NCBI GenBank assembly: GCA_003157485.1
Contig: PMJQ01000099.1
Span: 5,660-69,659 of the forward strand
Source of the DNA: Ignavibacteriota bacterium
GTDB taxonomy: Bacteria; Bacteroidota; Ignavibacteria; UBA10030; UBA6906
Length of the DNA: 64,000 nt
Direction of reading: 5' to 3'
Part shown: positions 1-24,376 of the stretch, one piece after another
Layout of the letters: each line of letters starts with the position of its first letter
Numbering within the stretch: the first letter of the stretch is position 1
The notes under the pieces: generated by a model
Told to the model about the DNA's origin: nothing
What the model saw: the letters and a program-made list of their open reading frames with translations, nothing else
The model's database searches: none
Translations under genes and position numbers: made by a program

Positions 1-1376
1 GCGTACAGGGCGAACAGAACCGGCAGCTGCAGGAGCATGGGAAGGCAGCCCGCCGCGGGATTGACGCCGTACTCCTTGTACAGGTTCATGATCTGCTGAT
101 TCTGTTTGTTCGGGTCGTCCTTGTACTTCTCACGGATCTCGCTCATCAGCGGCGTGAGCTTCTGCATCCGCTTCATCGACTTCATGCTCGTGCGCGTCAG
201 CGGCTGCAGCGCGAGCTTGATGATTATCGAAAACACGATAATCACCCACCCGTAATTCGGTATGAACTTATGAAGAAACTGAAACAGCGGGATCATGATA
301 TATTCTGATATCGGCCTGATGATCCAGGCGGACCCCAGGCTCATGATCTGTTCGAGACCGCGCCCGTACCCCTTCACGATATCGAAATCAAGCGGTCCCA
401 GATAGACCGTCACCTTTGCGTGTTCCGCGCCGGTCATGAGCGGCATTTTCAGGGCAAGGGCGAAATTCTTTTTTACGCCATTGTCCGCGACGGTGGCCCG
501 CGATCCTTCAATGTATGCTCCCTGGCTCGTGCCGTGCTCGGGCATCAGCGCGAGAGCAAAATACTTGTTTCTCGTCGCAACCCAGTCCATGAGACCGTTG
601 ATATCGCGCTTCGTCGTTTCCCCGTTCTTCCCCGCGTCAACCTCCGTCAGCTCGCCTCCGGAGTACGCGTACGCCAGTGCGAAGTTTGACTCGTCCACGC
701 TGTTGTGTTCCGCATACCGTAATCCGTTCTCCCAGACGATCTGGTACTCAAAATTCGATATTGCATCTCCCATACCCGTGAATTCGAAATCGGTCTCGAA
801 CGCATACTTCCCGTTTGTGAACGTCATCCGCTTTGTCAGCTTCTTCCCGCCTGCAAGCGGAAGCGTGAGCTCGACAATTACGCTCTGATCCCCCGAAAGC
901 CGGTATGTCGTCCATGATTTTTCGCGTGCGTCAAAATAGAGATTCTTCGTGTTGATGAGTTTCCCATCCCCCGAGGTGAACAGGAGGCTGAGGTCACCCC
1001 CCCTGTCGAAATCCACGAGCTGGACGGGATAACCGTCCCACGTCTTGAATGCCGAAAGCTCCCATTTCCGTATGAGCCCCCCCTTTGTCGTGATCTCCGC
1101 GGTATAGAGATCCGTCGAAATGACGATGACCTTTTCTTCGCCCCTGGCGCGGACGGAGAAGTAGGATCCAAGAAGATCGTCCGGAGTGTGCGCGGTGGTG
1201 TCGTGAGTCGCTGCGGGACGTTCCACTCTGAGAGTATCCTTCAGAACCGGCATCGATGCGTGGAGACTGTCCGCCGAGACGGGACGCGCATGCGGCGGGG
1301 GAGGAGCCTGCACCCACATCCAGATGATGAGGACCAGTCCGATGAGGACGAATCCGATCGTAGTTTGCTTATCCAT
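1..1376 (-). CDS. yidC: Membrane protein insertase YidC, N-terminal ~458 aa; 3' end runs past the window start
   Basis: Hand translation of the reverse strand from the ATG at 1376 gives MDKQTTIGFVLIGLVLIIWMW... and ends with the YidC hallmarks NYGWVIIVFSIIIK and CLPMLLQLPVLFALY. It sits immediately downstream of yidD, rnpA and rpmH. The ORF track omits it because it is truncated at the window edge. Confidence 0.88.
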   Translation of the reverse strand, partial: MDKQTTIGFVLIGLVLIIWMWVQAPPPPHARPVSADSLHASMPVLKDTLRVERPAATHDTTAHTPDDLLGSYFSVRARGEEKVIVISTDLYTAEITTKGGLIRKWELSAFKTWDGYPVQLVDFDRGGDLSLLFTSGDGKLINTKNLYFDAREKSWTTYRLSGDQSVIVELTLPLAGGKKLTKRMTFTNGKYAFETDFEFTGMGDAISNFEYQIVWENGLRYAEHNSVDESNFALAYAYSGGELTEVDAGKNGETTKRDINGLMDWVATRNKYFALALMPEHGTSQGAYIEGSRATVADNGVKKNFALALKMPLMTGAEHAKVTVYLGPLDFDIVKGYGRGLEQIMSLGSAWIIRPISEYIMIPLFQFLHKFIPNYGWVIIVFSIIIKLALQPLTRTSMKSMKRMQKLTPLMSEIREKYKDDPNKQNQQIMNLYKEYGVNPAAGCLPMLLQLPVLFALY

Positions 1377-1408
1377 ATCGCATCAATTTACGTGGGAATA
1401 AAAGTCTC

Positions 1409-1618
1409 TCAGGCGGGATCGAACCCGCCGGGATGAAACGGATGACAGCGGCCGATGCGCTTCAGCGCGCGCCAGAGCCCGCGCCCCGCCCCGTATTTGG
1501 AAACCGCGTCCATTGCATACTGGGAACATGAAGGGGAGAATCTGCACGTGTTCGGGGGGAGAAGCGGGGAAACAAGCACCTGGTACGCCCGGAGGACAAG
1601 AAGCACGCCATGTTTCAT
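1409..1618 (-). CDS. yidD: Membrane protein insertion efficiency factor YidD
   Basis: 69 aa with a YidD-like sequence ([37 protein letters not shown]). It lies in the conserved position between rnpA and yidC. Confidence 0.9.
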
Positions 1619-2004
1619 GCGCGCCCTCTCACGGCCGCCGCGCAGACTTTTCTGCAGAGTGAATTCATGTCCATGCTGACGCGGTCGAATCTGAATGGTG
1701 CCTGCCGTGTGCCCTTTCCCCCGTTGTAGATGAAAAGCACGTTGAGGGAATCTCCGGCAGTCTCAGCAGCACCCGCCAGCATGTCCCTCTCCCTGTCATA
1801 GGCTGCGCGCATGAGTCTCTTTGCCCTGTTTCTTCTCACGGCATTGTATCTCCTGGCAGAGACGGAAAAGCCGGCACGCACCCGCGTCCCGGCTCCTGTT
1901 TCCCACCGGAAGAAACACCGCACCACTTCGCCATCGACTTTCCTCCCTGACCTGTACAACACCTGGAAGGAATCCCGACCCCGAAGCGTTTCCGCCTTCC
2001 TCAC
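1615..2004 (-). CDS. rnpA: Ribonuclease P protein component
   Basis: 129-aa basic protein directly downstream of rpmH, and its end overlaps yidD by 4 nt. Size, charge and position are typical of RnpA. Confidence 0.85.
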
Positions 2005-2151
2005 CTACCGTTCGTCGCTTACAGTAAGTTTCTTCCTGCCGCGAGCCCGCCGCCGGGCGAGCACTTTTCGCCCGGTTTTCGTTGCCATGCGGGCGCGGAA
2101 TCCGTGCGTGTTCTTACGCTTCCTGTTGTGTGGCTGAAAAGTGATGCTCAT
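2005..2151 (-). CDS. rpmH: 50S ribosomal protein L34
   Basis: Not in the ORF track because it is under 60 aa. Hand translation from the ATG (complement of 2149-2151) gives [48 protein letters not shown], a clear L34 signature. Its stop abuts the rnpA start. Confidence 0.85.
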
Positions 2152-2290
2152 CCCGAACTCCCGCACTTTGTGTCAGAATCCCAGCAATCACCGGACATTC
2201 GTACAGCCGGATATATCACGTGAAGGGATACAAGGTATAAAAATTATGCCATAGACACAAGGAAACCCCAGGGAAAAAGAAATATTGATC

Positions 2291-2319
2291 TTGCGTCGGC
2301 TTCCCCATTGTAGTATAAT
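2291..2319 (+). promoter_or_regulatory. Sigma70-like promoter candidate (TTGCGT-17 nt-TATAAT) facing dnaA
   Basis: The -35-like hexamer at 2291-2296 and a perfect -10 TATAAT at 2314-2319 are separated by a 17-nt spacer. The element lies ~290 nt upstream of the dnaA ATG, with the DnaA-box cluster between it and the gene. Confidence 0.4.
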
Positions 2320-2427
2320 CTGAGAGTGAAGCGTTGCGATCCCCGGGTGCACAATTTGTTAACAAGTCCCAGTTCGGTTTAAGCCCCACCGTGTCAACTG
2401 CTCTCTGGTTTCCGATCTGATTCCGGA

Positions 2428-2583
2428 TGTTGATAATCGACAAAACCACCAGCAAATGACCCGATTTTAGGATGGTTTTGTTTTCCACAAAGCTGTTGAT
2501 AAGTTATTGATACTTTTCTTCCCGCGTGTCACCGTGTGCACTGTTGATAGTTTTGTTGATAACCTCGCCCGCGGTGTGCATAA
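2428..2583 (+). promoter_or_regulatory. Cluster of DnaA-box-like 9-mers upstream of dnaA
   Basis: Exact TGTTGATAA appears three times (2428-2436, 2494-2502, 2554-2562). Also present are TGTTGATAG (2542-2550), TTTTCCACA (2481-2489, the reverse orientation of the box) and TGTGCATAA (2575-2583). All are within one mismatch or so of the canonical TGTGGATAA/TTATCCACA. Confidence 0.55.
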
Positions 2584-2606
2584 CCCTCTAATCTATTGGA
2601 CGACAA

Positions 2607-4079
2607 ATGGATTCCAGTCCCCAGCTCATTATCAACCCGTCCGACGAGGATCAGGCGCGCGCTGTCTGGAACGCGTGCCTGGACCATATCAGGGAGAGTG
2701 TAAACACACAGAGTTTCAAGACGTGGTTCGAGCCCATGATCCCGATTCACCTGCGGGGGGGCAAACTGACCGTTCAGGTGCCAAGTCAATTCTTCTATGA
2801 CTGGCTCGAAGAGCATTACTATACGGTCATCAGCCAGACGATCGAGACGGTTCTCGGAAAGGATGCGCATCTTGAATATTCCGTTCGGACGGATGAGCCT
2901 CAGATAGACCTGGATTATCAGATTACCCCGCCGCCTGTACAGCGGCCCGAGAGGAGGACATTTCCGCCTCAGCCGACATCATTCACCGTTCCTCCGCCTC
3001 CACCATTCGTCGCAGGGAGAAGCGAGGGGACGCCCGGATCCTTTCAGACGTTCCTTAATTCCCGCTATACATTCGAAAATTTCATCAAGGGGGACAGCAA
3101 CCAGCTGGCGCGCGCGGCGGCTTCCGCCGTAGCCAATAACCCCGGAGGCACGTCGTTCAACCCTCTCGTTATCTACGGGACCACGGGCCTGGGGAAGACC
3201 CACCTCATCCAGGCAATCGGGAACCATGCCATAGCTCACGGAAAGGCAAAACGGGTTATCTACGTTTCAAGCGAGAGATTTACCGTCGAGTTCGTCGAAG
3301 CGATACAGCGTGATACGACAAACGAATTTGCCGGATTTTACAGGAGCATGGACATCCTGATCGTCGACGATATACAGTTTTTCGCGGGGAAGGAACGAAC
3401 CCAGGATCATTTTTTCCATACGTTCAACGAATTACACCAGCTCGGAAAGCAGATCGTCCTCTCGTCGGACAGGCCGCCGAAAGAGCTGAAGGGGCTGGAT
3501 GACCGGCTCCTCTCAAGGTTTCAGTGGGGACTGACGTCGGATATCCAGCCTCCGGATCTCGAGACCCGCATTGCGATCCTCCTCAAGAAGAGTGAGAATG
3601 AGCGTATCAATCTTCCCCAGGACGTCGTTGAATGCATCGCATCCAACGTAACGTCAAACATACGGGAACTGGAAGGCTGTCTGATCAGCCTCATGGCAAA
3701 GGCTTCCCTGGAAGGAAGGGAGATTACCGTCGATCTGGCGCGGGAAGTGCTCAAGGTTGTTGTTGGAGACGTCAAATCGCCGTTGACGATCGAGACCATC
3801 CAGCGCACCGTGTGCGATTATTTCAGCATTCCCGAGGATCTCATCCGGGCAAAAACGCGAAAACAGGAAATCGTGAACGCCCGTCAGGTAGCGATGTACC
3901 TGGCAAAAGAACTCACAAACTGCTCTCTGAAAACGATCGGCCTTCACTTCGGCGGGAGGGACCATAGCACGGTGATTCACGCATATCAGTCGGTCGAAGA
4001 TCAGATGCGCATCGACCAGAAATATCAGGCAAACGTTCAGCAAATCAGACGGCGCCTCCAGATGCTGGGACATGTATAA
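2607..4079 (+). CDS. dnaA: Chromosomal replication initiator DnaA
   Basis: 490 aa with an AAA+ Walker A (GTTGLGKTHL), a sensor region and a C-terminal DnaA-box-binding domain (IVNARQVAMYLAKELTNCSLKTIGLHFGGRDHSTVIHA). A proline-rich linker follows the N-terminal domain. Confidence 0.97.
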   Translation: MDSSPQLIINPSDEDQARAVWNACLDHIRESVNTQSFKTWFEPMIPIHLRGGKLTVQVPSQFFYDWLEEHYYTVISQTIETVLGKDAHLEYSVRTDEPQIDLDYQITPPPVQRPERRTFPPQPTSFTVPPPPPFVAGRSEGTPGSFQTFLNSRYTFENFIKGDSNQLARAAASAVANNPGGTSFNPLVIYGTTGLGKTHLIQAIGNHAIAHGKAKRVIYVSSERFTVEFVEAIQRDTTNEFAGFYRSMDILIVDDIQFFAGKERTQDHFFHTFNELHQLGKQIVLSSDRPPKELKGLDDRLLSRFQWGLTSDIQPPDLETRIAILLKKSENERINLPQDVVECIASNVTSNIRELEGCLISLMAKASLEGREITVDLAREVLKVVVGDVKSPLTIETIQRTVCDYFSIPEDLIRAKTRKQEIVNARQVAMYLAKELTNCSLKTIGLHFGGRDHSTVIHAYQSVEDQMRIDQKYQANVQQIRRRLQMLGHV

Positions 4080-4467
4080 TTTCGATCAGTGTGTTTAATT
4101 ATGTTCACAACATTGTGAGGAGTGTGTGATCTGTCGTGTAACGACTGTGCATACTTCATTCCTTGTTCTGTTACTTGCTCTTCACACCAATCTTTGTGCA
4201 TGGAACATTCCTCTGTGCACACGCTGACATTTCAAGTTCTTTCTCACCTTACTCTGCATACCTGAGCAGCACTCACCGCTTCTTTTGACCGTCTGACACT
4301 TCTCCACATATAAACACAGCTTATAATAAGTATTACTCTTATATATAGACACGTAAGAAGAGATACCACGGTTTCATGGAAGGTTGTTTTTCCATGGCTT
4401 TTTGCATAAATTATAAGGGTTTTTCTTCTCATGTAAATGTTCATCTAGTCCACCTCAGGAGAATGCA
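4080..4467. promoter_or_regulatory. AT-rich dnaA-dnaN intergenic region; candidate DNA unwinding element / oriC segment
   Basis: This 388-bp spacer has visibly lower GC than the ~60% flanks. It contains runs such as ACATATAAACACAGCTTATAATAAGTATTACTCTTATATATAGACACG (about 4300-4350). A single DnaA-box-like TTCTCCACA sits at about 4299-4307. The dnaN RBS (AGGAGA) is at its 3' end. Confidence 0.45.
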
Positions 4468-5580
4468 ATGAAATTCACCGCCAACAGCATTGAACTCCAG
4501 CGCACGCTAAATAAGGTCGGTGGTGTAGTTCCCTCAAAATCCACCATGCCTATTCTCGAAAATATTTTGTGTGAATTGTTGGGAAATATGCTGACACTGA
4601 CGGCGACGGATCTCGCAATTTCGTTGACGGTATCTCTTCAGGTTCGCGGTTCGGAAGACGGCAGAATTGCCATTCCCGCGAAACGACTTATGGATACGAT
4701 GAAATCGCTCCCTGATACAAGCACGACGTTTTCCATCGATACCGGGGCAAATAAAATCAAAATTACGACGGAAAACGGAGAGTACGGACTGACGGGAGAA
4801 ACGGCAAAGGACTTTCCGCCCGTTCCGCCGTTTAAGGGTACATCAGAGTTTTCCATAGACAGTAACATTCTGCGCGGCCTTATTCACAGGACCACATTTG
4901 CCGTAAGCACAGATGAACTGAGACCTGCCATGATGGGGGTATTATTTCAGGCAAAGGATACGGACCTGCGCGCGGTATCGACGGACGGACACAGGCTGGT
5001 AAGGCTGACCTACAGGCAGCAAAAGCCGCTTACGATGAAAAAGGACATTGTTATTCCGGCCAAGGCACTTCTCATCCTCGGCAAGTCCATAGACGAAGGA
5101 GATACGGCAATAAGCGTCAGCGATACGCATGTGAAGTTTACGTTCGGTCCGTCGTTCCTTGTCTCCCGCCTCATCGACGAAACGTACCCGACGTATGAAG
5201 CGGTGATCCCCGCGGAGAACGACAAGCAGATGACTGTCAAACGGGACGACATGATTTCCTCTATTCGGCGTGTTGCGCTCTACGCCAGCGCGACAACGCA
5301 TCAGATTCGGTTTGACATTGTGAAATCCGCGCTCCAGATAACCGCCCAAGACCTCGATTTCGGCGGCGAGGCCAAGGAGACAATTCCGTGCACATTTACG
5401 TCGGATGCGCTCGAGATAGGATTCAATTCCGCATATCTGATCGACATCCTTTCGCACCTTGAAAGCGAACAAGTGACGTTCCGCTTCAGCACGCCGACGC
5501 GGGCCGGCATTGTTGCGCCAGTGGGAAGTGACAGCGACACCGTGCTCATGCTAGTAATGCCGGTGCGGTTGAATACATAA
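4468..5580 (+). CDS. dnaN: DNA polymerase III beta sliding clamp
   Basis: 370 aa starting MKFTANSIELQRTLNKV..., with an AGGAGA RBS upstream. It occupies the canonical position after dnaA. Confidence 0.95.
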   Translation: MKFTANSIELQRTLNKVGGVVPSKSTMPILENILCELLGNMLTLTATDLAISLTVSLQVRGSEDGRIAIPAKRLMDTMKSLPDTSTTFSIDTGANKIKITTENGEYGLTGETAKDFPPVPPFKGTSEFSIDSNILRGLIHRTTFAVSTDELRPAMMGVLFQAKDTDLRAVSTDGHRLVRLTYRQQKPLTMKKDIVIPAKALLILGKSIDEGDTAISVSDTHVKFTFGPSFLVSRLIDETYPTYEAVIPAENDKQMTVKRDDMISSIRRVALYASATTHQIRFDIVKSALQITAQDLDFGGEAKETIPCTFTSDALEIGFNSAYLIDILSHLESEQVTFRFSTPTRAGIVAPVGSDSDTVLMLVMPVRLNT

Positions 5581-6758
5581 GGGGTGTTGCCACATGCTTC
5601 CCCGACGCGGTCCCGCCTCCGGCGGGACCGCTGTATTGACGGGCACGCCACAGACCATGATCCTTTCCAGAATCAGACTCGGCAACTTCCGGAACCATGC
5701 TGCAACGGCCATCGAGTTGGGTGGGGGTATTAACGCCTTTCTCGGCGACAACGGTCAGGGAAAGACAAACATACTGGAAGCGGTCTCGTATCTCAGTCTT
5801 ACGAAGAGTTTCTATGCATCCGGCGACTCCGAAGCGATTGAGATCGGTACCGGGGGATTTGACGTTGAAGGGGTCCTTGTCTCTGACGCGGGGGTGCAGC
5901 ACCAGGTCAGCGTGACATGCGCGCGGCTGCCGCAGGCGAAACGGTTTCTCATCAACGGCTCGCCGCCGGAACGGCTTGCCGCAGTCATCGGACGGTTCCC
6001 CGTTGTCGTCCTTTCCCCGGAAAAAGGTCCCATAACGTTTGGCGGCCCGGGCGAGCGAAGAAAATTCATGGACCTTGCCCTCTCGCAAGTAAGCGGCGCG
6101 TATCTTGAGGAAATCCTCGAATACCGGAAAGCGCTCAGGCAACGGAACAGGATACTCACCAACAACCGCGCAAAGGGCTTTCTGCCGCCCGGAGTGATCG
6201 AGCCGTGGACGGAAAGCCTGGTGGCCTACGGGAGCAGAGTTGCGCACCGCCGTGCGATGTTTGTCACCGACCTACGCAGCCACATCGTAAGCGCATACCG
6301 TACGATAATGCCGGAGGCGGAGACTCCGGACATCGCCTACGTTTGCGGGTTCGCAGCGGGGGAAGGCGCTGACGCCCGGGCATATGCGGCGTCTTTGTCC
6401 GCGGATCTTGAAACGAGGAGTACCGAGGAGCGCCGGCGCGGCCTGACCCTTGCGGGTCCTCACCGGGACGATCTGCTTCTGACGATCAACGGAATGAACG
6501 TACAGCGGTTTGCCTCGCATGGGCAGCACAAGACACTCCTTGTGGCTATGAAGATTGCGGAATATTCCTATATGCAGGAGAGGCACAATGAAACACCGAT
6601 GCTCCTCCTGGACGATGTGTTCAGCGAGCTCGACAAGGGGCGCGTCCACCGTATCCTCTCCTTCGCCGCAGGGCTCGGGCAGGTGATGATCACGGCGACA
6701 GAGGGAACAGTGTTCGGCTCCTCGATCGCGTGGGGAAGACAGAACAGGAGATTTATCG

Positions 6759-9174
<2,416 letters not shown>

Positions 9175-9212
9175 ACGAGCAGCCACTCCGGAACAACACA
9201 CTCTGAAACGCC

Positions 9213-11951
9213 ATGGCAACTGTGAACGAAAAAATCATCCCGGTCGACATTGAAGATGAAATGAGGGGATCGTACATCGACTACTCGATGTCGGTCATTG
9301 TCGCGCGTGCCCTCCCTGACGTGCGTGACGGACTGAAGCCGGTGCACAGGCGGGTGCTCTTCGGGATGCAGGAACTCGGGCTGGCGGCAAACCGCGCCTA
9401 CAAAAAGTCGGCGCGCATCGTCGGCGAGGTGCTGGGGAAATATCATCCGCACGGCGATTCGGCGGTATACGATACCATGGTGCGCATGGCACAGGACTTC
9501 TCCATGCGCTATCCGCTCGTGGACGGCCAGGGGAATTTTGGGTCTGTTGACGGCGATTCGCCCGCGGCGATGCGGTACACCGAGGCGCGCCTGTCGCGCA
9601 TCGCGGAGGAGATGCTGAAAGACCTCCAGAAGAACACCGTGGATTTTGTCCCGAACTTCGACGACACGCTTACGGAACCCTCCGTCCTCCCCGCGGTAGT
9701 TCCGAACCTCCTCGTCAACGGCACGAGCGGCATCGCTGTCGGGATGGCGACAAACATCCCGCCGCACAATCTCGGAGAAGTTGTCGACGGATGTATCGCC
9801 CTTATCAGGGACGAGTCCCTGACCGACGAAAAGCTCATGAAGTTTGTGAAGGCGCCGGATTTCCCGACGGGAGGAATCATATACGGGTTCGAAGGTGTGA
9901 AGAGCGCGTACACGACCGGACGGGGAAGGATTGTCGTACGTGCGAAGGCGAGCATCGAGACAGGGAAGAACGACAGACAGAGCATCGTGGTGACGGAGAT
10001 TCCGTACCAGGTCAACAAAGCGAACCTCATCGAGAAGATCGCCGATCTCATCAATGAGAAGAAGCTCGAGGATATTGCGGATATCCGCGACGAGTCGGAC
10101 AGGGACGGGTTCCGGATCGTCATAGATCTGAAACGCGACTCGAACGCGGAAGTCATCCTGAATAACCTGTACAAGCACACGCAGATGCAGACGACGTTCG
10201 GGGTCATTATGCTTGCGCTCGTGGAGGGAAGGCCGAAAATCCTCACGCTGAAGGAGATGATCCGGCGGTTTATCGATCACCGGAATGAGGTTGTCGTCCG
10301 GCGCTCGAAGTTTGAGCTCGACGAGGCGGAGAAACGCGCGCACATCCTCGAGGGATACATCATCGCGCTCGACAACATTGACGCGATTGTAAGGCTCATC
10401 AAGGGATCGAAGGACGTCGAGACCGCCCGGACCGGGCTGATGAAGAAGTTCAAGCTGTCGGAGATCCAGGCGAAGGCGATCCTGGAGATGCGTCTCCAGC
10501 GTCTCACGGGACTCGAGCGGAAGAAGATCGAGGACGAGTACCGCGAAACGATAAAGCTCATCGAACGGCTCAGGGCTATCCTGAAGAGCAAGCAGCTCCA
10601 GATGGAGATTATCAAGGATGAACTCCTTGAGATCCGGAAGAACTACGCCGACGAGCGGCGTACGGAGATCGTGTACACCGCCGAAGAGTTCAGCATTGAA
10701 GACATGATCGCGGAAGAGCAGGTCATGATCACGATAAGCCACGGCGGGTTCATCAAACGATTTCCGGTAAGCGGGTACCGCCGCCAGACACGGGGAGGGA
10801 GGGGGAGTACCGGTGCAACGACGAGGGAAGATGACTTTATCGAGCACATGTTCGTGGCGAGCACACACGATTACATCATGCTCTTCACGAACGAAGGGAG
10901 ATGCTACTGGTTGAAGGTGTTCGAGATCCCGGAGGGGGGGAGGGCGTCACGCGGGAAATCGATTGCCAATCTTATCTCCAAGGAGCAGGCGGATTCCATT
11001 GCTTCGTATGTCTCTGTCAAGAACTTCGAGGACCCCCTATTCGTGCTCATGGTGACGGAGCAGGGAATGATAAAGAAGACCCCGTTGAGCGAGTTCAGCA
11101 ATCCGCGCAGGACAGGGATCGGCGCGATCGGGCTTGCAAAGGGGGACAGGCTCATCGAAGTCCGGATGACAGATGGGTCGCAGGACGTCGTAATAGGGAC
11201 GCACGACGGACTGGCGATCCGGTTTCACGAGCAGGAGGCCCGCCCCATGGGACGCTCGGCGGGAGGCGTGCGGGCCATACGGCTTGACAAGAAGGACAGG
11301 GTCATCGGTGCGGTGGTGCTCAGGAAGAGCGGGACGACGATTCTTGTGGCGACCGAGAAGGGTTTCGGCAAGAGGAGTGAGCCGGATGAGTACCGCGTCA
11401 GCCACCGGGGCGGGAAGGGAATATTCACCGTAAAGACTACGGATAAAACCGGCAGGATGGTTGCCATTCGGGAAGTTCTGGAGTCCGATGACATTGTCGT
11501 CGTCTCAAGCGGCGGGATCGTGATCCGGCAGCATGCTTCCGAGGTCCGGCTTGCCGGAAGGAATACGCAGGGCGTCCGCCTGATAAAACTCGGCGAAAGG
11601 GACACGGTGTCGGATGTTGCTTCCGTGATGGCGGAGGATCAGGATATCCCGGATACAAACGGAAAAAAAGGAGGGGACTCACCCGAAGGCGAAAAAAAAA
11701 CTCTGATCCGGAACAGAAGTAACGCAACAAAAGGGAAGGCGAAAGAGAACGGCGCCTCCAATATCCCAGCTTCAACCGCACGTGAGGCGGAAAGCGCAAA
11801 AACTTCCGTACCGCGGAAGACGGCACCCGGCAAGAGGCCGGCGGTCAAAACGATACCCCGGCATGCCGGGAAGCCGAAACGGGAACAGCGTTCGCCCGCG
11901 AAGGCACGCACTCTGATGCGCGGCCGGAATCAGAAGAAGAAACGAAAATAG
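9213..11951 (+). CDS. gyrA: DNA gyrase subunit A with a ~110-aa Lys/Arg-rich C-terminal tail
   Basis: 912 aa with the catalytic region ([10 protein letters not shown]) and the GyrA-box region (QTRGGRGS). A strongly basic low-complexity tail follows the beta-pinwheel domain (...[30 protein letters not shown]...RNQKKKRK). Confidence 0.95.
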
Positions 11952-21680: not shown

Positions 21681-23333
21681 TCATTCTCCCTGTTTCGCAG
21701 GGAGTGCGGGGCGGGCAAAGAGCACTTTCTCCCGCTCGATCGTGACTGTTCCGGCGGGCGCTCCCCGGGGCTTCCGGACGAAACGCTTCTCAGTCATGGC
21801 CACCGCGACGGTTCCCGAGTTTTTCAGCTTGCTGTAAAACGCCGCGATGGCGGCAGCCTGTTCGCACGCCTTCTTTCCCGGTTCTCCTTTTCCCGAATGC
21901 ACCTTCAGCACCACATGAGAACCGCTTCCCCCGCGCGCGTGGAACCACAGATCGTCGGGCTTCGCATACCGGAGAGTGAGAAGATCGTTGTTTGCGCCGT
22001 TCTTTCCGGCCCAGACTTCGAAGCCCCCGTCCACAGTGAAGACCCTGAACGGCAGCCGTTCTTTTTCCCGGCTTCTGGCCCCGAGCCCGACGCTTTCCAA
22101 CTCTTCCGCATGTTCGCTCACAAACTTCTCTCCCCGGTCTCCCGGTGCCAGATCCTCCGCCCCGGCGAGAAGTTTCTCAAGGCGCTCGATCCGGGCGGAA
22201 ATCTCAATCATTCTGCGGACCGATTCTTCACCGGCGGACTTTGAGCGCTTGGCCTTTTCGAAATAGCGCTGGGCATTCTGAACGGGCGAAAGGGCGGGCT
22301 CGAGAGGTATGGAGACGGGTTCCCCTTCGATCGTGCCGTCGAATGCTCTCGATCCCCTTTGCAGGTCCGGGAGCGCCGCCATCAGGGCGTTACCGAACTG
22401 CTCATAGGTCCCGGCCCTCTCAGCTTCGTGCGCATCCGTTTGAATCGCCCTAAGCGCCCGCTTTTCTTTTTCGATACGCAGCCGGAGCGGTGTAAGGAGA
22501 GACTCCCTCTCTCCATCGAGAAACGATTTGGATGCCCTCCGGGCAAGGAAGAACCTGATGCCCCTGTTGATGTCGGGGAACAGTTCTTCCTTCATGCCGC
22601 CGGCAAGCGTGAGGGGGATAAGCGAAAAAAACGCCGGGACGTCCTCACCCGAAATGTACACTCTTGGAAGCGGCCTTTCAAGGTCTGTCTGGACAGAACG
22701 AATCCCGCGTTCGAGCGCCGCAAGTGCCCCGGAATCAATCCCACCGGTCTTAAGAGACGCATCCACCCCGGCGCGCGTGACGGATTCGAGTGCGAGTGTA
22801 CCGCCCATGGCCGGGAAAGTCCTTTTGATGGCGGAGATAACAGTCCGCGTTTCTGGTGAAGCGCAGGCGGCGCGGAACGCCTGAATGTCCCCGGTGGGAA
22901 CCTCGGGTGCGAAATGAAATGAAGTGCCTGCGAGTTTTTTCGGGTTCTTGAACGAATCGACGATCTTTCCCGAATCCCCCAGGAGGAGCACATTGGACCT
23001 CGGTCCATAGAGAACAGCTGCGAGCGTCGTTCCGTTGTCGAGGCTGATTTCCACCACACGGTCGGATGGGCGCAGAATCACGGTGTTCACATGCGTATCC
23101 ACGATGTCGCCGAGGAGGTCAACGGAATTCCGGCGGGCCCTGGTTCTCCCCTCGTGGATGTAGACTGAGCTGACATCCGGCCTGCAGAGGAAGACGAGCT
23201 CCCCCGGATGATCATGAAAAGCTATTGCAAGCTCGTCCGCGTGCTGCGAATAGGCCCCACGGATCCGTTTTCCCAGAATACTGGAATTGAACGTGGAAAC
23301 GAGGAAGAGAAAAGTGTAGTAATTGCTGATCAC
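21681..23333 (-). CDS. NFACT-family RNA-binding protein (FbpA/RqcH-like, ribosome quality control)
   Basis: 550 aa with N-terminal NFACT-N-like sequence and a central coiled-coil. The C-terminal DUF814/NFACT-R region is recognisable (WFHARGGSGSHVVLKV...). Confidence 0.78.
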   Translation of the reverse strand: MISNYYTFLFLVSTFNSSILGKRIRGAYSQHADELAIAFHDHPGELVFLCRPDVSSVYIHEGRTRARRNSVDLLGDIVDTHVNTVILRPSDRVVEISLDNGTTLAAVLYGPRSNVLLLGDSGKIVDSFKNPKKLAGTSFHFAPEVPTGDIQAFRAACASPETRTVISAIKRTFPAMGGTLALESVTRAGVDASLKTGGIDSGALAALERGIRSVQTDLERPLPRVYISGEDVPAFFSLIPLTLAGGMKEELFPDINRGIRFFLARRASKSFLDGERESLLTPLRLRIEKEKRALRAIQTDAHEAERAGTYEQFGNALMAALPDLQRGSRAFDGTIEGEPVSIPLEPALSPVQNAQRYFEKAKRSKSAGEESVRRMIEISARIERLEKLLAGAEDLAPGDRGEKFVSEHAEELESVGLGARSREKERLPFRVFTVDGGFEVWAGKNGANNDLLTLRYAKPDDLWFHARGGSGSHVVLKVHSGKGEPGKKACEQAAAIAAFYSKLKNSGTVAVAMTEKRFVRKPRGAPAGTVTIEREKVLFARPALPAKQGE

Positions 23334-23390
23334 AGTTTTATCAACAATATATTGAAAAATGGCGATTTTCCCAACAGATTCGCGGATCTA

Positions 23391-23399
23391 TGTGGATAA
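23391..23399 (+). promoter_or_regulatory. Isolated perfect consensus DnaA box TGTGGATAA
   Basis: Exact 9-mer located in the divergent intergenic region between the RqcH-like gene and yicC. Confidence 0.3.
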
Positions 23400-23497
23400 C
23401 TTGTGAATGGCGGTGAAAAATGTGTCTGCAAGTTTCCATTGCGACTACTGCGGGTTTTTAGTATTATACCTTGCTTAGGCACAAGCCATGAGGATGA

Positions 23498-24376
23498 ATG
23501 ATCGCCAGCATGACCGGGTTTGGTAGGGGGGAATCGACGGGAGAAGGCGTAACGGTCACCGTTGAGCTCCGGACGGTGAACAACAGATTTCTGGAGGTCA
23601 CGACGCGCCTGCCGCGATCGCTCAGCCTCCGAGAAAATGACGTCAAAGAGTTGATACGGCGGAAGATATCACGCGGCAAAGTGAACGTGATTGTCAATGT
23701 CGAGCGGGAAGGAATCGGGTCTGCCGGGCTGGAAATCAATACAGCCGCGGCAAAAGCATATTATTCGCTTCTCGTCCAGCTGAGAAAGACGCTTCGGCTG
23801 AAGGAAGCCGTGAAGCTGCAGCATATGCTGCAGTTCTCTGAGATATTCGAACAGAAAGAGTCCGGCGGGACCGACGAGAAGGAGTGGGCGGTCCTTCAGG
23901 AATCGCTGGAGACCGCCCTCGGGGCGCTGGCGGAGATGCGTCGGGCTGAGGGAGGAGAACTTGATAGGGATTTCCGGGCCCGGATTGCGTTTCTTGACGA
24001 GAAGCTGGGGCAGATCGAACGGCTCTCGGCGGAACAGGTCCCCGTTGAACGCGTTCGGCTTCGTGAACGGGTGACTCAGCTCGTCGAGAAAACCCCCGTC
24101 GATGAAGGCCGGCTTGAAATGGAACTGGCGCTGCTGGCGGACAGGCTCGATGTGACGGAAGAGTGCGTCCGTTTCAGGAGCCACAACAAGTTCTTTCTGG
24201 AAGCCCTAGCCCTTCCCGAGCCCGCAGGAAGAAAACTCAATTTTCTCATCCAGGAGATGAACCGGGAGGCGAACACGATCGGCTCGAAATCCAATGCTAC
24301 GGAGATCGCGCACATCGTTGTGAACATGAAAGAGGAACTGGAGAAGATCAGGGAACAGCTGCAAAACATCGAATAA
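23498..24376 (+). CDS. yicC: YicC-family protein (YicC_N + DUF1732)
   Basis: Begins MIASMTGFGRGE, the canonical YicC start. It is 292 aa and followed by gmk as in many bacteria. Confidence 0.85.
   Translation: MIASMTGFGRGESTGEGVTVTVELRTVNNRFLEVTTRLPRSLSLRENDVKELIRRKISRGKVNVIVNVEREGIGSAGLEINTAAAKAYYSLLVQLRKTLRLKEAVKLQHMLQFSEIFEQKESGGTDEKEWAVLQESLETALGALAEMRRAEGGELDRDFRARIAFLDEKLGQIERLSAEQVPVERVRLRERVTQLVEKTPVDEGRLEMELALLADRLDVTEECVRFRSHNKFFLEALALPEPAGRKLNFLIQEMNREANTIGSKSNATEIAHIVVNMKEELEKIREQLQNIE

Follow-up and report, generated by a model that had tools for sequence, protein, structure and literature searches.

A probable unwinding region of the chromosomal replication origin in the dnaA-dnaN spacer of an Ignavibacteriota bacterium

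The window analysed here is a stretch of 64,000 nucleotides from an Ignavibacteriota bacterium (contig PMJQ01000099.1 of GenBank assembly GCA_003157485.1), and our subject is the spacer between dnaA and dnaN, which the original prediction had put forward as a candidate DNA-unwinding element (DUE) of the replication origin, oriC. dnaA occupies positions 2607-4079 (TIGR00362, 548 bits) and dnaN positions 4468-5580 (TIGR00663, 272 bits). On the minus-strand side lie yidC, yidD (1409-1618), rnpA (1615-2004) and rpmH (2005-2166), and on the plus-strand side dnaA and dnaN are followed by recF (5594-6790), gyrB (7114-9174) and gyrA (9213-11951). The divergent arrangement of yidC-yidD-rnpA-rpmH and dnaA-dnaN-recF-gyrB-gyrA is the ancestral origin synteny, which we count in favour of an origin at this locus. 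Together, the features described below indicate that the dnaA-dnaN spacer is quite probably the unwinding half of the chromosomal oriC of this bacterium.

The spacer is 388 bp long and has 39.4% GC, the lowest value of any 388-bp stretch of the window, and no non-overlapping window of that length is equally low. With a window mean of 58.9% GC (sd 3.9%), it lies about five standard deviations below the mean, bearing out the AT-richness for which it was singled out. The flanks of about 60% GC described with it fit the window mean, but the flanking genes themselves are each about 53% GC. The 30-bp GC minimum of the whole window (4320-4349, 17% GC) also falls inside the spacer. Both strings that had been quoted from the spacer are where they were said to be, TTATAATAAGTATTACTCTTATATATAG at 4321-4348 and TTCTCCACA at 4300-4308, and the best 27-bp run within the former is 89% AT. 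At the 50-100 bp scale, intergenic regions at about 45.45 kb and 23.33 kb are comparably AT-rich.

We calculated helical stability with code of the stress-induced duplex destabilization (SIDD) type, using the Benham model with copolymeric energetics and an exact partition function over all states, obtained by forward-backward recursion. In positions 1-10000 of the window, the sole site with an opening probability above 0.05 is 4306-4358 at a superhelical density (sigma) of -0.045, and this site widens to 4302-4447 at -0.055. When single runs are ranked over the 64 kb, 4321-4347 is the easiest to open at both densities. The calculation was extended to 62 related loci of about 7.4 kb, in which the spacer makes up 6% of the locus length. 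The peak fell within the dnaA-dnaN spacer in 59 of them and within the rpmH-dnaA spacer in one, and about 90% of the total opening probability was found in the dnaA-dnaN spacer. Where the pair of DnaA boxes described below is well defined, the peak has a median position 41-45 bp past the start of the pair, that is, in the triplet and AT-rich tract. A lack of duplex destabilization relative to other intergenic regions had been named as grounds for abandoning the DUE; we found the spacer to be the strongest of the window's intergenic regions, with the same outcome in those 59 relatives.

The unstable tract is preceded by two DnaA boxes and a short run of triplets (Table 1), which we compared with the published definition of the basal unwinding system (BUS; PMC8287927). 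This definition comprises a DnaA box with at most 2 mismatches, an optional second box with at most 4, a spacer of 0-16 bp (mode 10-13) that is often G+C-ended, and at least 3 triplets whose middle base is adenine on the strand that runs 3'->5' from the box. The trio consensus used was 3'-[G/A]A[T/A]-5'. The orientation rule, by which the box reads 5'-TTATCCACA-3' towards the unwinding site, was derived from the entries for Clostridioides difficile (top strand CACC-TACTACTATTACTACTA; PMC7561715), Bacillus subtilis (top strand CTACTATTACTTCTACTA) and Escherichia coli, with the supplementary table of PMC8287927 as a further source. The window contains a box with 1 mismatch, a second box (with 3 mismatches to TTATCCACA), an 11-bp spacer from box 1 to the first trio that ends in CAGC (12 bp, ending in CCCC, in the clade consensus), and (.A.)x3 on the bottom strand, which are the formal elements of a BUS. 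The first three triplets (4320-4328) read 3'-GAA TAT TAT-5' on the bottom strand and CTT ATA ATA, three consecutive.T. triplets, on the top strand, where AGT ATT ACT CTT A follows. Written in the 3'->5' notation of the trio strand, the window reads AAGAGGTGT / ATATTTGT / GTC / GAA TAT TAT. The AT-rich, helically unstable tract that follows directly after the trios of a BUS is present as well, as judged from the SIDD-type calculation and the 30-bp GC minimum. Since the trio rule is easily satisfied by chance in AT-rich DNA, the weight of the comparison comes from conservation.

A scan based on DnaA gave 80 related loci with 58-98% DnaA identity, from Ignavibacteria, Kryptoniota and metagenome-assembled genomes (MAGs) labelled 'Bacteroidota', the nearest genome match being MAG MFD01476.bin.1.169 (98% DnaA identity). 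The divergent order of rpmH and dnaA-dnaN-recF is preserved in nearly all of them. The dnaA-dnaN spacer measures 261-674 bp, with one exception of 1,872 bp (locus L026), and is always more AT-rich than the flanking genes. It diverges fast, with 74% identity to the nearest relative (L001) despite a 98% identical DnaA. In an alignment of the 11 closest spacer sequences (A1), the invariant columns of the central spacer concentrate in a dense block at 4301-4342, where the columns of box 1 are invariant or nearly so; the other invariant islands are GTG/TGTG at 4114-4154, TGTGCA at 4195-4222, TTG-N20-TAAATT at 4384-4414 and the AGGAG before dnaN. The tandem boxes read TTCTCCACA / TATAAACA in the window and TTATCAACA / TATCCACA in the clade consensus, in which the second box is (A)TATCCACA. 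The 17-mer TTATCNACATATCNACA is found with at most 3 mismatches in 49 of 68 related spacers as against 41 of 1360 dinucleotide shuffles (3%). Of the 61 spacers with a best match of 4 mismatches or fewer, 57 carry it on the + (dnaA-sense) strand. When the 49 spacers are anchored on this 17-mer, CCCC follows downstream, then T-T-A three times, nTn TTa TTT and 20-30 further A/T-rich positions. The 3-nt T-T-A periodicity is clear at +21 to +29 and weaker beyond. By these alignments, a module made up of the box pair (consensus TTATCAACATATCCACA), CCCC, TTA TTA TTA and an AT-rich tract is conserved in strand and position among Ignavibacteriota and Kryptoniota relatives with DnaA identities as low as 58%; the remainder of the spacer diverges. 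The candidate DUE is thus supported in silico, by the SIDD site at 4306-4358 together with a conserved, correctly oriented box pair and trio-like triplets that adjoin the AT tract.

Two variants of the spacer were seen among the relatives. The long spacer of L026 (4453-6327) resembles an insertion, but 278 bp before dnaN it retains the module of box pair, CCCC and TTATTACTA. Kryptoniota-like loci (L063, L067, L074 and L076-L079) have an extra rightward box-like motif (GTTTTCCACAG, GTTTTCAACAT, GGTTCTCCACAAG) just past the AT-rich tract, about +75 bp from the box pair (around 4650 in L063, for example), so that their DUE would be bracketed by boxes. The window reads GGTTGTTTTTCCATGG at the equivalent place, possibly a decayed remnant.

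Table 1. Features of the two spacers that flank dnaA, in positions of the window.
Feature	Positions	Strand	Remarks
dnaA-dnaN spacer	4080-4467	+	proposed oriC unwinding sub-region, equivalent to 'oriC2' or incC
Proximal DnaA box 1	4300-4308	+	TTCTCCACA; 1 mismatch to TTATCCACA; faces AT-rich tract
Proximal DnaA box 2	4308-4316	+	(A)TATAAACA; co-oriented, abuts box 1; start-to-start 8 bp
Short G+C spacer	4317-4320	+	CAGC; clade consensus CCCC, from anchored frequency table
DnaA-trio-like triplets	4320-4341	-	three central-A triplets on bottom strand; clade consensus TTA TTA TTA nTn TTa TTT
AT-rich core, predicted DUE	4321-4348		TTATAATAAGTATTACTCTTATATATAG; 28 bp, 86% AT
Distal array of four weak leftward box-like 9-mers	4114-4154	-	TGTGAGGAG, TGTGTGATC, CGTGTAACG, TGTGCATAC; spaced 9-12 bp; GTG columns invariant in A1
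Two TGTGCA-type weak reverse boxes	4195-4222	-	TGTGCATGG (4195-4203), TGTGCACAC (4214-4222); conserved among closest relatives in A1
Candidate dnaN promoter	4384-4414	+	TTG 4384-4386, 20 nt, TAAATTAT 4407-4414; TTG and TAAATT/TAATTT conserved in A1 and A3
dnaN ribosome-binding site	4457-4461	+	AGGAG; invariant in A1 and A3
Upstream DnaA-box cluster, rpmH-dnaA spacer	2347-2583	-	candidate 'oriC1' or dnaA autoregulatory operator; GTGCACAA/GTTAACAAG 2347-2366, TGTTGATAA 2428, TTTTCCACA 2481 (+ strand), TGTTGATAA 2494, TTATTGATA 2504, TGTTGATAG 2542, TGTTGATAA 2554, TGTGCATAA 2575

Further box-like sites lie on the dnaA side of the pair. The 9-mers of the distal array read nnnnnCACA on the minus strand, the top-strand TGTG being the CACA end of reverse boxes. 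They match the box consensus poorly (2-5 mismatches) and lie 150-190 bp from the DUE. Across the clade, TGTG upstream of the box pair forms an 11-bp ladder in which 68 pairs are in phase, where shuffles give 8.3+-3 (maximum 19); CACA, tested for the same phasing in that part of the spacer, gave no such signal. Exact phasing occurs in 21 of 68 spacers, from relatives that are not independent of one another, and we regard the putative phased array as a supporting feature and not a defining one. The hexamer TGCACA/TGTGCA is enriched in both spacers that flank dnaA. The statement that the spacer holds only weak DnaA-box matches is literally true, as a single box there has 1 mismatch or fewer, but it undersells a conserved tandem pair with phased reverse boxes. 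Just past the dnaA stop codon, at 4106-4118, a palindrome TCACA-ACAT-TGTGA is common to the four closest relatives, and in more distant relatives this position holds a plain reverse box, TGTGAACAA.

The dnaN-proximal part of the spacer carries conserved signals of another kind. We take TTG-N20-TAAATTAT to be a candidate dnaN promoter of the -33/-7 type of Bacteroidota; a scan of the spacer for the sigma-70 consensus gave no match on the + strand. On the minus strand a near-consensus promoter-like site, TTTACA-16-TATAAT (4437->4410, 11/12), points back to the AT-rich tract and overlaps the conserved block for which we prefer the + strand reading. Opening of the DUE could be aided by transcription entering it from this site, but the bases involved are also readable as the + strand dnaN promoter. 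A terminator-like hairpin (4374-4397) with a T-run to 4405, TCATGGAAGGTTGTTTTTCCATGG CTTTTTG, was considered as a terminator or small RNA and rejected: it is genome-specific and not conserved in L001, no consensus structure emerges and folding gives a z-score of -0.46. Such signals raise the question of whether the spacer serves expression control purely, with the 3' end or terminator of dnaA, a dnaN promoter, tuning of dnaN by DnaA and an AT-richness that belongs to the promoter, the true unwinding site being elsewhere. The hairpin with its T-run, the conserved promoter-like block and AGGAG upstream of dnaN would all fit, as would the fact that other promoter-bearing intergenic regions come close to the spacer in AT content and in ease of opening. 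The hairpin, however, lacks both covariation support and conservation, even in L001, the candidate promoter is downstream of and separate from the 4321-4348 tract, and a promoter leaves unexplained the tandem boxes at fixed distance, the C-rich spacer and the T-T-A periodicity conserved to 58% DnaA identity. We therefore consider pure expression control unlikely, and note that a part in regulation would be compatible with an origin function.

The spacer might instead encode a small RNA, a structured dnaN leader or a small protein, and there are several open reading frames (ORFs) of 41-66 amino acids in it, besides the hairpin and the minus-strand promoter-like site. We found no conserved RNA structure in the spacer, the consensus being essentially empty with no covarying pair, and an Rfam scan of 2000-4700 at E<=10 returned two chance-level matches, both outside the dnaA-dnaN spacer. 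The ORFs were rejected as coding, because three of four are interrupted by in-frame stop codons in L001 and substitutions fall equally on all codon positions, with no third-position bias; a family search of two of them (4122-4265 on the + strand and 4244-4444 on the - strand) gave no match. With the folding z-score given above, these results make an RNA or protein product the least credible of the explanations weighed here.

On the other side of dnaA, the claimed box cluster was confirmed as a conserved cluster of at least 7 boxes, whose columns are conserved in alignment A2. The rpmH-dnaA spacer has five boxes with at most 1 mismatch plus conserved weaker ones, nearly all leftward-facing. They sit between the dnaA start codon and an invariant, sigma-70-like promoter, TTGCGT (2291-2296), 17 nt, TATAAT (2314-2319), which is preceded by the A-rich GAAAAAGAAATATTG. 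This promoter would give a 5' untranslated region of about 280 nt holding all the upstream boxes, which suggests autoregulation of dnaA, and an autoregulatory operator alone could explain the cluster. There are then DnaA-box clusters in both spacers that flank dnaA, the upstream one and, downstream, the tandem pair with the phased weak boxes, and given the upstream cluster of at least 7 conserved boxes a bipartite origin with that cluster as its second half, as originally proposed, is plausible. Opening is predicted in silico in one flank only, the dnaA-dnaN spacer. A formal BUS candidate was also examined upstream: TTTTCCACA at 2481, a 14-bp spacer and TTA TTG ATA CTT TTC TTC, six.T. triplets. 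It was rejected, as its first triplets fall within a conserved reverse box (TATTGATA), the rest of the run lacks conservation among relatives, and the tract is 57% AT and not destabilised. That the unwinding element lies in the rpmH-dnaA spacer, with the dnaA-dnaN spacer merely an auxiliary box region, would be in keeping with the more numerous and better boxes there and with the larger triplet number of the 2481 candidate. The failings of that candidate speak against it, as do the best opening run of the rpmH-dnaA spacer, which is 2-3 kcal/mol worse than 4321-4347, the lack of any SIDD opening in that spacer of the window, the single relative with its peak there, and the position of the boxes in the 5' untranslated region of a conserved promoter, which fits autoregulation; we judge this placement very unlikely. 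Elsewhere in the same spacer, a nearly invariant block, CAAGGTATAAAAATTATGCCAyAGACACAAG (2231-2262), lies 66-96 nt upstream of rpmH; its minus strand holds an extended -10-like TGGCATAAT and is probably the rpmH-rnpA promoter.

Returning to the dnaA-dnaN spacer as the unwinding half of oriC, the DnaA protein itself was aligned without gaps to a highly conserved stretch of B. subtilis DnaA (cryo-electron microscopy chain 8btg). The backbone and wedge residues are retained (I190->V230, I193->I233, K222->K262, E223->E263). In the initiator-specific motif of B. subtilis, N187 contacts the adenine and R202 and E228 the guanine of the trio. The paper that describes these contacts reports that the residues are not universally conserved, and replacements at these positions therefore do not exclude membership in the BUS class. 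The loss of both guanine-contacting residues from the protein encoded here would fit AAT instead of GAT triplets, while that of the asparagine in contact with adenine is not so simply accommodated. Should the residue and triplet changes be linked, which we propose as a rather doubtful idea, Ignavibacteriota would represent a natural variant of single-strand origin recognition, with either a different base-reading code or AT-driven melting and backbone contacts without base-specific capture. If this were true, the correspondence between DnaA motif and trio sequence could be deciphered by comparison with Firmicutes. DnaA has 490 amino acids, and its domain II (window 2900-3040, residues ~99-145) is a proline-rich linker, ...PPPVQRPERRTFPPQPTSFTVPPPPPFVAG..., longer than that of B. 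subtilis.

Several observations weigh against assigning the unwinding half of oriC to the dnaA-dnaN spacer. The strict triplet count of the window is 3, the bare minimum, and the register is ambiguous, since the top strand can also be read TTA TAA TAA GTA TTA CTC TTA. Box 2 is degenerate in the window. Given this weak form of the module, the case rests on its conservation in the clade. The base-contact residues of DnaA differ from those of B. subtilis (N187->V227, R202->A242, E228->H268), and the 79 scorable relatives have V/I/L, S/A and N/H/S at these positions. As for helical stability, the values come from our own implementation of the Benham model and its parameters, the intergenic sites at 23.3 kb and 45.4 kb follow closely in opening energy, and AT-rich intergenic DNA carrying a promoter would also score in a SIDD calculation. 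The first 4 kb have a GC skew of -0.047, and 14 of the 15 subsequent 4-kb bins a positive one, with the cumulative minimum at 5713, which is consistent with an origin near dnaA yet a poor locator, because just 2.6 kb lies left of dnaA; the skew is also confounded by gene orientation. All the support for the assignment is computational.

By the homology of its architecture to B. subtilis, the spacer may work by the BUS mechanism. Domain IV of DnaA would bind the two abutting rightward-facing boxes at 4300-4316 and, from this anchor, an ATP-DnaA oligomer would extend onto the bottom strand of the adjoining triplets, from about 4320. The oligomer would open the 4321-4348 AT tract, already destabilised by negative supercoiling, and the replicative helicase would then be loaded there. 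The phased weak boxes at 4114-4154, those at 4195-4222 and possibly the upstream cluster might concentrate DnaA locally or contact the proximal pair by looping. The elements, their orientation, spacing and conservation and their predicted helical instability are what the loci themselves display; DnaA binding, growth of the oligomer, actual melting and origin activity are expected by analogy.

A second small group of DnaA boxes was found at 23336-23412, in an AT-rich divergent intergenic region flanked on the minus strand by an RqcH/FbpA-like gene (21681-23333) and on the plus strand by a yicC-family gene (23498-24376). The group contains TTATCAACA at 23338 (+), TGTGGATAA at 23391-23399 on the minus strand, which is the only perfect box of the window, and TGTGAATGG exactly 11 bp after it. 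The region is the second easiest to open in the window at a sigma of -0.045 and the third at -0.055. This group may serve to titrate DnaA or mark a promoter under DnaA control.

The analysis provides a precise, testable origin map for an uncultured Ignavibacteriota genome and about 60 relatives, comprising the box pair, triplets, predicted DUE, distal phased boxes and the candidate dnaA and dnaN promoters. The map anchors coordinate 1 and the replichore orientation of these MAGs and supplies sequences for strand-separation assays. It also constitutes an independent confirmation, at clade scale, that the Bacteroidota/Ignavibacteria lineage shares the basal unwinding architecture of the Bacillus type. 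The origin is well supported but of an ordinary, known type, a BUS having already been predicted for the lineage in Ignavibacterium album, and the current picture of bacterial initiation is unchanged.

The closest described counterpart is incC of B. subtilis, which likewise occupies the dnaA-dnaN spacer, dnaA itself being preceded by a second box cluster. Its abutting boxes (DnaA-box #6/#7), TTATCCACA / AATCCACA, are followed on the top strand by GGCC and CTACTATTACTTCTACTA, and the box geometry is identical here. Both have a 3-4 nt G+C spacer, bottom-strand triplets with a central A and then an AT-rich tract, and in each the first triplet comes 11-12 bp after the stronger box. The supplementary table gives the B. 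subtilis BUS on the trio strand as AATAGGTGT / TTAGGTGT / CCGG / GATGATAATGAAGATGAT (PMC8287927); this CCGG, read 3'->5', is GGCC on the top strand and corresponds to CAGC here. The triplets differ, being mostly 3'-AAT-5' (top strand TTA) here and 3'-GAT-5' in B. subtilis, as does the number of strict triplets (3 in the window, at least 6 in B. subtilis), and the N187, R202 and E228 of B. subtilis DnaA are V, A and H in the window. incC also has additional distal boxes in the same spacer, as here, and this distal sub-region, which is helically phased and functional in both orientations, has been proposed to act by looping (PMC6669920). The 4114-4154 array may be its parallel, even though the distal boxes here are weak, leftward-facing and phased at about 11 bp, unlike those of B. 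subtilis. To our knowledge, DnaD, and hence its recognition element, is not expected outside Firmicutes.

The bipartite origins of C. difficile and Helicobacter pylori have boxes on both sides of dnaA, as here, and a SIDD-predicted DUE and trio in the dnaA-dnaN sub-region directly after the boxes (PMC7561715). DnaA-dependent melting at oriC2 was shown by P1 nuclease in those species, and in C. difficile oriC1 was shown to be required for this melting. In the window, melting of the dnaA-dnaN spacer is a prediction. In E. coli, oriC contains arrays of low-affinity DnaA sites spaced 2 bp apart. The distal array of the window, a head-to-tail series of weak 9-mers with a period of about 11 bp, resembles these arrays; unlike in E. 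coli, exact phasing is found in only about a third of the relatives.

Within the lineage itself, the predicted BUS of I. album JCM 16511 (genome 1731-1766) reads AATATTTGT / ATAATTGT / GTC / AATGATAATGATAAC on the trio strand, 3'->5' (Pelliciari et al. 2021, PMC8287927). It comprises an abutting box pair, a 3-nt spacer and AAT/GAT triplets, and it has the same intergenic location as the module of the window, in the same phylum-level lineage; the window, with TTCTCCACA / TATAAACA / CAGC, differs in detail and has a shorter triplet run. In Melioribacter roseus, oriC was predicted in the 303-bp dnaA-dnaN spacer from GC skew and boxes (Kadnikov et al. 2013, PMC3534657). These are predictions for single genomes, to which the present work adds the conservation across the clade, the SIDD profiles and the phased distal array.

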